Positions 19,603 through 22,011 of a stretch of DNA of 32,000 bases are shown in pieces (the first letter of the stretch is position 1; the number at the start of each line of letters is the position of its first letter). The notes beneath the pieces are model-generated. The model did not search any database. It was not told where the DNA came from and saw only the letters and a program-made list of their open reading frames with translations. The stretch spans positions 3,360,001 to 3,392,000 of the forward strand of contig JAIZWK010000001.1 of NCBI GenBank assembly GCA_021498095.1, in the 5' to 3' direction. This DNA is from Candidatus Harpocratesius repetitus. GTDB lineage: Archaea; Asgardarchaeota; Lokiarchaeia; Sigyniarchaeales; Promethearchaeaceae. The position numbers and the translations under genes were made by a program.

Positions 19603-22011
19603 TTAAAAATCTAAATAATAGGTTGATCTTTCATCATGATAGTCCTGATGGTAATCATGACGATTAACCCATTTATCAGTATGAATACTACCATCAGAAT
19701 GCTTAATTTCTGGGAGTAAATGTCTATATTTTTTGAAGGAATTAATGACTTGAATTTTATCATTTATATCTATAGAATTATTTTTGAGAACATACTGTAT
19801 CACGGGTGAAACTGCCCTATTGTCCCCAATCTTCCCTAAGGCTTCTGCGGCAGATTTTCGGACAACATATTCGGAATCTTTTAAGGCGGTAATGAGAGGA
19901 TCCACGGCTCTCGGATCCCCAATCATCCCTAAGGTTTCTGCGACATATTTTCGGACTTTATAATTAGAATAATTTAAGGTGACAATGAGGTGAGGCACAG
20001 CTTCTGAACCCAATTTAACTAAAGCAGATATATTTTTGTAAAAAATAAGTAATGGAATTTTTGCTCTCGGATCCCCAATCTTCCCTAAGGCCTCTGCGGC
20101 AGATTTCCGGACATCACTATCGGAATCATTTAGGGTAGCAATGAGGTGAGGCACAGCTTCCGAACCCAATTTAACTAAAGCAGATATATTTTTGTAAAAA
20201 ATAAGTAATGGAATTTTTGCTCTCGGATCCCCAATCCTCCCTAATGCTTCTGCGGCAGATTTCCGGACATCACTATCGGAATCATTTAAGGCGGCAATGA
20301 GGCGAGGCACAGCTCTCGGATCCCCAATCTTCCCTAAGGCTTCTGCGGCAGATTCCTGAACATCACTATCAGAATCATCTAAGGCGGCAATAAGGCGAGG
20401 CACAGCACTCGGAACCCCAATCTTCCCTAAGGCCTCTGCGGCACATCTCGAGATATACTTATTGGAATCTTCTAAGGTTTTGATAAGGCAAGGCACAGCT
20501 CTCGGATCCCCAATCTCCCCTAAAACATCTGCGGCAGACCTCCTGAGTTCAAAAGAAGATCCTTTTAAGGCGGTAATGAGGTGAGGCACAGCTTCCGGAC
20601 CCAATTTAACTAAAGCAGATATATTTTTGTAAAAAATAAGTAATGGAATTTTTGCTCTCGGATCCCCAATTTCCCTTAAGACCTCTGCAATATTTTTTCG
20701 GTTCACCCCATCGGATTCATTTAAGGCTTTGATGAGACGAGGTACAGCATTCGAACCCAATTTAACTAAAGCAAATAGAGGACTTATGGTTCTCGGACCC
20801 TTAATCACTCCTAAGAACCCTGCTACAAATTTCATATCGCAAGAAGAACCTTTTAAGTATTTGATGAGGTGAGAGGTGGCTTCCGATCCCAATTTACTTG
20901 AGACCTTTGCGGCAGAATCCCAGACATAACCATTGGAATCTTTTAAGGTGGTAATGAGGTGAGATGTGGCTTCCGAATTCAATTTACCTAAAGCCATTGC
21001 GGCAGACCTTCGGACATACTTATTGGAATCTTTTAAGGTTTTGATGAGGGGTTTCACGGCTCTCGGATCTCCAATCTTCCCTAAGGCTTCTGCGGCAGAC
21101 CTTCGGACATACTTATTGGAATCTTTTAAGGTTTTGATGAGGGGTTTCACGGCTCTCGGATCTCCAATCTTCCCTAAGGCTTCTGCAGCATATTTCCGGA
21201 TATCCTCATCAGATTTTTTTAAGGTTTTGATGAGGGGTTTCACGGCTCTCGGATCTCCAATCTTCCCTAAAGCCTCTGCAGAATATTTTATGACATCCCA
21301 ATTTTTAGGATTAAAATATTCTTTTTTTAAGGCTTTGATGAGGGGATCCACGGCTCTCGGATCCCCAATCACCCCTAAGGCTTCTGCGGCAGATCTCTCG
21401 ACTCTATAATTGGAATTTTGTAAGATTTTGATGAGGCGAGGCACAGCTCCAATCTTCCCTATGGCCTTTGCGGCATATTTTCGAACAAAAAAAATGTTAT
21501 CTTGTAAGGCGTTGATGAGAGGTTTCACGGCTTTCGGATCTCCAATCTTCCCTAAAGCCTCTGCGGCAGACCTCCGGACATACTTATTGGAATCTTGTAA
21601 GGCTTTGTTGAGGGGTTTCACGGCTCTATGATCCCCAATCACCCCTAAGGCCTTTGCGGCAGATTCCTGGATATTCCAATTGAAATCTTTTAATGCATTG
21701 ATGAGATGAGGCACGGCTCTCGGATCTCCAATCTTCCCTAAAGCCTCTGCGGCAGATTCCACGACTCTCCATTCGGAATCTTTTAAGGTTTTGATAAGGT
21801 GATGCACAGCTCTCGGATCCCCAATCTCCCCTAAAGCCTCTGCAGCATATTCTCTGACAAAATAATAGGAATCTTTTGAAGCTTCCATGAGACGAGGCAC
21901 ACCTTTCGAACCCAATTTAACTAAATCAGATATTTTGTCATTCATAAGCAAATTACCTTTAATTTTACAGTTAATATAAGAGGCTCTAGCAATTTTTTTT
22001 ATTTTAATCAA
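19603..22011 (-). CDS. HEAT/PBS-lyase repeat protein with His/Asp/aromatic-rich C-terminal tail (likely ATG start at 21945)
   Basis: Many 31-aa repeats [23 protein letters not shown]; TTG start at 22011 in the track, internal ATG (MNDKIS) at 21945. Confidence 0.9.
19985..21860. repeat. Intragenic 93-bp tandem repeat array with interspersed longer modules
   Basis: 21001-21093 and 21094-21186 are identical. The [18 protein letters not shown] module recurs at 19985, 20141 (156-bp period) and 20576. Confidence 0.9.

Follow-up and report, generated by a model that had tools for sequence, protein, structure and literature searches.

A His-x-Asp tail on an Asgard archaeal HEAT-repeat protein as a likely partner of the adjoining two-module radical-SAM enzyme

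The subject of this report is a gene pair in a 32,000-nucleotide stretch of the genome of Candidatus Harpocratesius repetitus (contig JAIZWK010000001.1, positions 3,360,001 to 3,392,000; the whole stretch is called the window below), in which a HEAT-repeat protein, P0001, is encoded nine nucleotides upstream of a radical S-adenosylmethionine (radical-SAM) enzyme of two modules, P0002. P0001 ends in a tail built around His-x-Asp (H-x-D) triplets that is unique in its own genome, and across many lineages members of the same tail family are paired with members of the same enzyme family. The tail is most likely a partner of the neighbouring enzyme, most simply its substrate, and on balance we expect that P0002 modifies it. 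Beyond the pairing, we infer the role of the tail as substrate, the residues that react and the chemistry. Radical-SAM/SPASM maturases are a main source of new peptide chemistry, and to our knowledge almost all of their known substrates are short peptides that bear a leader.

Results

Counted from a TTG codon at 22011, P0001 has 802 residues and ends at a TAA stop codon at 19603-19605; an alternative start, an ATG at 21945, lies 22 codons in. Repeats recognised by Pfam (HEAT_2, 2.2e-147; HEAT_PBS, 8.6e-130) fill almost the whole protein. In a single-sequence AlphaFold2 (AF2) model regular helices run to about residue 765 and the predicted local distance difference test (pLDDT) score falls below 50 over residues 767-802, so that in this model the tail is an unstructured appendix to the solenoid. 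The last 35 residues are rich in His, Asp and Tyr; they hold five His and six Asp, with HSD, HTD and HQD and two H-D dipeptides among them, and no Cys. Translation and coordinates agree with the initial annotation in its account of this sequence, of four triplets (HSD, HTD, WVN and HQD, all within residues 771-790) and of the 9-nucleotide gap to the radical-SAM gene, and Pfam bears out the HEAT solenoid upstream and the double radical-SAM enzyme downstream.

The tail is singular in its own genome. As a null distribution, the last 35 residues were scored in all 17,986 stop-to-stop open reading frames (ORFs) of at least 50 amino acids in the 4.36-Mb genome. No H-x-D occurs in 17,544 of these tails, one in 422 and two in 19, and the single ORF with three is P0001, which is also alone in having five H-(x)-D in its tail. 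P0001 is furthermore the sole PBS-type HEAT ORF of the genome by a strict repeat pattern. The genome holds one tail and one TIGR04083-type enzyme, 9 nucleotides apart, with no terminator-like site between the two genes on the minus strand. The short spacer suggests that the genes are co-transcribed and their translation coupled.

The association recurs far beyond this genome. Loci were gathered from contigs encoding enzyme homologues, from genome contigs and from metagenome contigs, of both bacteria and archaea. In many bacterial phyla and on archaeal contigs, same-strand neighbours of TIGR04083-type radical-SAM genes end in H-x-D-rich tails, and the check proposed at the outset, that genes beside homologous enzymes should share a C-terminal tail of this kind, gave such a neighbour in 19 of the 21 distinct two-module loci whose flanks could be used; in these the tail proteins have 140-1002 amino acids. 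Over all loci that could be judged, nearly every one contains one to three same-strand tail ORFs, of 90-1002 amino acids, many of them HEAT proteins. The two exceptions among the 21 are L018, whose genome (G061) has exactly one tail protein, sited on another contig, and L004, where a HEAT gene in convergent orientation encodes a divergent tail. Enzymes that consist of the N-half only likewise adjoin tails (L013, L015, L022, L097 and L098), which makes the TIGR04083 N-module the constant partner. In the genome of L006 (G062, contig C224, 957-12309) four tail proteins of 312-1002 amino acids stand in a row with a single double radical-SAM gene, so that a single enzyme can be paired with a number of diverged tail proteins. 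Among loci whose genes are annotated there is no recurrent protease or exporter.

An alignment of 30 tails (A3) defines the shared element. From the end of a helix (W-x-x-I) it runs through a first H-x-D that is all but invariant, a variable linker in which D-C is usual and an additional H-x-D common, and a second site with an invariant His, H-x-D-x-G-Φ-G-Φ-x-F-P, frequently to a terminal x-D-F. Only the two H-x-D sites are conserved across the family. With the A3 profile a tail ORF was found in 25 of 41 family loci, always on the strand of the enzyme, a count that is partly a matter of construction because the profile includes tails that it then finds. The independent part of this test is the control: the profile matched none of 128 loci of other radical-SAM/SPASM enzymes (1.26 Mb, read in six frames).

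A reverse search started from the tail. At E <= 1e-3 a tail profile retrieved 766 clusters (50% identity) from a collection of 1.84 billion proteins, and positions and motifs were counted in the best 160 of these clusters. The module ends within 3 residues of the C-terminus in 143 of the 160 and is internal in 12; the proteins range from 79 to 1150 amino acids, and 91 have at least two matches to a crude HEAT-repeat pattern. Among the 148 in which no more than 15 residues separate the end of the module from the C-terminus (the top tails), at least two H-x-D are present in 144, H-x-D-x-G in 138, Cys in the last 35 residues in 144 and the G-Φ-G element of site 2 in 128; the final residue is Phe in 30. 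When three proteins were chosen by their tails alone, two had a double radical-SAM gene within two genes, and the third, which lay among arrayed HEAT genes, had no enzyme within 8 kb. Some members of the family (P0128, P0156 and P0159) have an internal H-x-D module, with a Cys-rich, zinc-ribbon-like segment after it and D-V-x-P-D-F at the terminus, a layout from which the terminal D-F may be an element separate from the H-x-D module.

P0002 has 781 residues, runs from an ATG at 19593 to 17248, and contains two CX3CX2C radical-SAM cores and two SPASM-type regions; Pfam recognises two Radical_SAM and two SPASM stretches, and the start codon is backed by conserved first residues in homologues. 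The N-module scores 325.7 bits against TIGR04083, for which the curated cut-off is 300, with residues 3-357 aligned to positions 2-353 of the 376 in the profile. The CX3CX2C cysteines of both modules (C11/C15/C18 and C451/C455/C458) are invariant in a 12-sequence alignment, every invariant column of which P0002 retains. The N-module keeps four auxiliary cysteines (C241/C246/C262/C318). It lacks the CxxCx5C motif and the last SPASM Cys, and from this pattern it appears to be twitch-like, with one auxiliary cluster at most. The same loss (residues ~300-330 of P0002) is common to P0006, P0007 and P0008, whereas the eight bacterial homologues in the alignment keep both elements; loss of the second auxiliary cluster (AuxII) thus appears to be clade-wide and not a private defect.

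The nearest sequences in the PDB are ChlB (1.1e-16) and anSME (2.5e-16) for the N-module and CteB (5wgg, 2.3e-11) for the C-module. In a Foldseek search with the AF2 model of P0002 (mean pLDDT 81) the best match was anSME (7.5e-17; template modelling score 0.76-0.80), with ChlB (2.7e-13), CteB, SuiB and SkfB next. Because the closest structures, anSME, ChlB and CteB, all act on peptides or proteins, these matches count in favour of a maturase. The model is purely helical across residues 333-435, and an assignment of the inter-module linker as a PqqD-like recognition domain, of the recognition-element (RRE) kind found with ribosomally made peptides that are modified after translation (RiPPs), was rejected, as the linker has no Pfam match and lacks the RRE β-sheet. 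The fused form of about 770-900 amino acids is common in public data (963 matches at E <= 0.001). The best 120 of these matches are all 735-900 amino acids long with 92-100% of the query aligned, and those with named hosts come from several bacterial phyla. P0002 itself ends in M-D-F (window 17251-17259, minus strand), which echoes the L-D-F of the tail; this is probably a coincidence, since the ending is absent from homologues. Matches in PADLOC were generic (HEAT models, and pVip on the radical-SAM core at 113 bits) and are no evidence for a defence system.

The window copy is best compared with its closest relatives, which form an archaeal-type enzyme clade. P0006 is 45% identical to P0002 and lies on a contig with archaeal ribosomal protein genes; P0007 is 40% identical, on a contig with an Arf-family GTPase gene. 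On the contig of this second-closest homologue (L167) the Arf-family small GTPase, at 469-1131, is encoded two genes upstream of the HEAT gene, which is compatible with an Asgard origin of that contig. HEAT neighbours in the clade end in P-x-I-K, H-x-D, a Cys linker, [IYS]-H-[TN]-D and a C-terminal Y-L-[DE]-F. The pattern P-x-I-K, H-x-D, [IYS]-H-[TN]-D, Y-L-[DE]-F is common to the window and the three closest archaeal-type loci (among them L001, with two tails, and L167), its counterparts in the window being P-E-I-K, HSD, HTD and the terminal YLDF. Archaeal-type tails end in the same manner (YLEF, TLLF, YLEF), and many bacterial tails have a comparable Φ-D-F ending.

Against the wider family, HTD coincides with site 1, whose columns H35 and D37 in A3 are at least 90% conserved, and H792 aligns with the invariant second His (H50). 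After HTD the window tail carries a private insertion of 18 residues that holds WVN, HD, HQD and HD. Of the four triplets taken together as a core motif in the initial annotation, HSD and HTD therefore stand at family positions, and WVN and probably HQD belong to the insertion. The window tail stands at the extreme C-terminus, on the same strand as the TIGR04083-type enzyme that it adjoins, and contains at least two H-x-D. Missing from it are the Cys-bearing linker and the G-Φ-G of site 2, along with the rest of G-Φ-G-Φ-x-F-P, and a profile from which it and its closest relatives were left out does not match it significantly. Taken together, the tail appears to be a divergent member of the family, and by profile alone it would not be a member.

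The pair is an isolated occurrence among its relatives: a search of 60 genomes from its genus, family and order gave no match to the enzyme (E <= 1e-30) and none to the tail profile (E <= 0.01), and in another phylum, that of G061, the enzyme occurs in 2 of 401 sampled genomes. Enzyme and tail behave like a single unit, acquired jointly and lost jointly. Fragments of an IS6-like insertion sequence on one side and an IS110-family element on the other enclose the locus (Table 1), and the window pair is a patchily distributed, divergent archaeal variant that was probably acquired horizontally. The G+C content is 43% in the HEAT gene (window 20001-22000), 32% in the adjacent radical-SAM gene and 31% in the genome; the raised value may reflect a repeat rich in Ala, Gly, Pro and Arg, or a foreign origin. 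An AAA_28-type ATPase of about 195 amino acids, 49-60% identical from one locus to another, recurs in a subset of the bacterial loci at a distance of a few genes from those of enzyme and tail. It is also present in two of the loci reached by tail alone, and there is none in the window.

Table 1. Features of the gene pair and its flanks in the window, with AAA_28-type ATPase genes of bacterial loci
Feature	Position	Strand	Basis
HEAT/PBS-lyase-repeat protein P0001, putative substrate	19603..22011	-	ORF list, translation, Pfam
C-terminal tail, residues 767-802, proposed modified region, no predicted structure	19606..19713	-	AF2 pLDDT, H-x-D count, alignment with 29 tails of homologous loci
HSD, residues 771-773, just upstream of site 1	19693-19701	-	Translation
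Site 1, H777-T778-D779	19675..19683	-	Aligns with nearly invariant first H-x-D of tail family (alignment A3)
Site 2 region, H788-Q-D790 and H792-D-E794	19630..19650	-	Alignment A3
Terminal Y-L-D-F-COOH	19606..19617	-	Likeness to archaeal-type tail ends
Intergenic spacer, 9 nucleotides, GATGAGAAA on the coding strand	19594..19602	-	Sequence
Radical-SAM N-module of P0002, residues 1-357, TIGR04083 type	18523..19593	-	NCBIfam, Cys pattern, PDB sequence matches
All-helical inter-module linker, residues ~358-435	18289..18522	-	AF2 model, no Pfam match
Radical-SAM C-module, residues ~436-781, complete SPASM Cys set	17248..18288	-	Pfam Radical_SAM and SPASM, cysteines in alignment A1
IS6-like transposase fragments directly downstream of the pair	16300..17070	-	Pfam and NCBIfam
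Intact IS110-family transposase upstream of the HEAT gene	24560-26035	+	Pfam and NCBIfam
AAA_28-type ATPase	L170 10612-11199		
AAA_28-type ATPase	L014 12177-12761		
AAA_28-type ATPase	L091 12533-13102		
AAA_28-type ATPase	L093 6342-6926		
AAA_28-type ATPase	L094 264-830		

Discussion

The N-module of P0002 passes the NCBIfam model TIGR04083, a hypothetical equivalog named 'peptide-modifying radical SAM enzyme', and fused-form homologues in databases bear the same name. That model describes one module and has no assigned substrate, whereas in P0002 that module is fused to a second, distinct SPASM module. The literature searched yielded nothing on TIGR04083, on HEAT or PBS lyase together with radical SAM, or of relevance on Asgard archaea together with RiPPs. 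Since no literature on TIGR04083 was found, the family name says nothing about substrate or chemistry. P0002 also falls short of the NCBIfam cut-offs for all characterised maturases, whether of the cyclophane, thioether or Hxs kind (bits/cut-off: DynA 219.6/450, anSME TIGR03942 202.6/349, PapB 167/340, YhhB 136.6/445, HxsB 125.7/370, GrrM/OscB 121.1/310, QhpD 120.5/453, AmcB 113/425, FxsB 109.7/370). The precedents to which the locus had been likened at the outset are nonetheless real: triceptide synthases do act on His-x-x triplets (PMC11499958), and the HXS system does combine a His-repeat protein with two radical-SAM enzymes (PMC13128918). What the cut-offs speak against is membership of P0002 in either of these characterised enzyme families.

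Triceptide synthases that act on His motifs include HaaB (HAA), YhhB (HNR) and HtkB (HTK), and ChlB acts on YDR (PMC11499958; PDB 9gm3). Cross-links from His C2 to Cβ are established triceptide chemistry (PMC11499958). The present system resembles these in the aromatic-x-x motifs of the tail and in ChlB being the top PDB sequence match of the N-module and the second-best match by fold. It differs in that the substrates would be proteins of up to about 1000 amino acids and in that the enzyme has two modules, and the scores for YhhB, GrrM/OscB, FxsB and AmcB lie far under the cut-offs for triceptide (3-CyFE) maturases. In the HXS antiphage system, HxsA with its His-x-Ser repeats is matured by the radical-SAM enzymes HxsB and HxsC, together with HxsD (PMC13128918). 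The likeness lies in a sizeable protein with His-x-X repeats, two radical-SAM/SPASM-type activities and, for HXS, a mature product that stays a protein. Unlike HXS, the window motif is H-x-D and not H-x-S, both activities are fused in one chain, and the putative substrate is a HEAT solenoid with no peptidoglycan-binding domain and, by eye, no obvious signal peptide. HxsB lies under its cut-off, HxsC is not among the best 25 NCBIfam matches, and no HxsD-like gene was present among the neighbours scanned, which are insertion-sequence fragments.

Two further comparisons bear on substrate and chemistry. The best structural match, anSME (PDB 4K36-4K39), is a radical-SAM/SPASM enzyme that modifies a full-length protein without a leader peptide, although P0002 is under the TIGR03942 cut-off and the window tail lacks the C/S-x-P-x-R sulfatase motif. 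PapB (ranthipeptides) and QhpD (quinohemoprotein amine dehydrogenase gamma subunit) form Cys-to-Asp/Glu thioethers, QhpD on a protein subunit. In most bacterial tails a conserved D-C accompanies H-x-D, an arrangement that would suit a PapB/QhpD-type Cys-Asp thioether. For the window copy, whose tail is devoid of Cys, such chemistry is ruled out.

In the mechanism that we propose, P0001 would be the substrate protein and P0002 its dedicated maturase, with both genes read as one unit. The unstructured C-terminal tail would enter the active site of the TIGR04083-type N-module, where a 5'-deoxyadenosyl radical would abstract hydrogen at the conserved H-x-D sites and install a covalent change. The preferred chemistry would be a triceptide-type, three-residue cyclophane from His to the Cβ of Asp, with a mass change of -2 Da per site. 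Analogy to the triceptides formed on HAA, HNR and HTK (PMC11499958) and the likeness to ChlB make such a product plausible, and we put this specific cross-link forward as tentative. The fused second SPASM module may add a further modification. The product would remain on the HEAT solenoid as a matured protein, with no peptide released; a matured protein, as in sulfatases and in HxsA (PMC13128918), is the more likely outcome. The initial annotation had instead cast the solenoid as the leader of a giant precursor. That proposal has become unlikely, because tails also occur on proteins of 79-150 amino acids, on proteins without the crude HEAT pattern and as internal modules, and because no protease or exporter recurs in the annotated loci.

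A number of observations weigh against modification of the window tail by P0002. No modification has been observed anywhere for the tail or enzyme family, the matches of the A3 profile in family loci are partly circular, and P0002 scores under the cut-offs of all characterised maturases given above. The window tail is without the Cys that 144 of the 148 top tails have and without H-x-D-x-G. Its site 2 reads H-D-E or H-Q-D, depending on the alignment, with Glu where at least 90% of tails in A3 have Asp, and in the archaeal clade the N-module is without ligands for a second auxiliary cluster. With a profile drawn from bacterial tails alone, the window tail scores 1.8 bits, rank 245 of the 17,986 ORF tails of its own genome, and the L001 tails score 5.1-5.4 bits. 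Because the bacterial-only profile misses it, the assignment of the window tail to the family rests on its position, its H-x-D count, the archaeal intermediates and the gene context. A predicted complex of the enzyme (alignment A1) with the 60-residue tail (A3) scored 0.06 against a mark of 0.32 and carries no weight either way.

P0001 could be a partner of the enzyme in another sense, as a scaffold, chaperone or regulator whose unmodified tail serves as a metal-binding arm or active-site plug, the true substrate lying elsewhere. H-x-D, Cys and His are classic metal ligands, a HEAT solenoid typically serves as a binding scaffold, some loci contain as many as seven HEAT genes in an array, and the modification chemistry is itself something that we infer. 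The element that is conserved, however, is the tail and not the solenoid, and tails are also borne by proteins of 79-150 amino acids and by many that lack the crude HEAT-repeat pattern. One to four different tail proteins accompany each enzyme, which is the pattern of substrates rather than of a stoichiometric partner, and no other candidate substrate recurs in the loci. We therefore consider a purely non-substrate role unlikely.

A second alternative concerns the window alone, where the pair might be an acquired and decaying copy whose tail, having lost the Cys linker and G-Φ-G-Φ-x-F-P, is unmodified or only partly modified. Such a history would agree with the insertion sequences on both sides, with the absence of the pair from the 60 relatives, with an N-module without AuxII ligands and with a tail that lacks features of more than 90% of top family tails and has no close tail relative in the protein collection, where a homology search with residues 733-802 gave no match. 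Yet both ORFs are intact, the enzyme keeps all invariant columns including both CX3CX2C motifs, and the tail retains its five His, its six Asp and the terminal YL[DE]F of its clade; the AuxII loss, being common to the whole archaeal-type clade (P0006, P0007 and P0008), is old and tolerated. Decay is in our judgement quite unlikely. Chance, in the form of a low-complexity C-terminus that happens to adjoin a radical-SAM gene, might draw on an AT-rich genome that favours Asp, Asn, Tyr and Lys and on the failure of the bacterial-tail profile to find the window tail. It would have to place the only ORF tail among 17,986 with at least three H-x-D on the genome's only strict-pattern PBS-type HEAT gene, 9 nucleotides from its only TIGR04083-type enzyme, in an arrangement that the three closest archaeal-type loci repeat, and we regard it as very improbable. 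Modification of the tail by P0002 is the reading that we favour.

The wider proposal, which we advance as a possibility and no further, is that the H-x-D tail and the TIGR04083-type enzyme constitute a new class of maturation at the level of the protein, in which one or two radical-SAM active sites cross-link the two conserved His-x-Asp sites (together with Cys where present) into a rigid, unreleased knot, perhaps metal-binding or cofactor-like, at the end of HEAT solenoids. If this is true, the Asgard-type variant would show that Cys and the second auxiliary cluster are dispensable and that His-x-Asp is the minimal reactive unit. In sum, one enzyme family is here associated with a defined tail on large solenoid proteins, in 766 clusters for which no paper was found in the literature searched. 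If the tail is modified, the system would represent a widespread post-translational modification of proteins, comparable in concept to the formylglycine of sulfatases or the HXS effector. The archaeal copy, which lacks both Cys and G-Φ-G and is one auxiliary cluster short, would then be a natural minimal variant and informative on which elements are essential.

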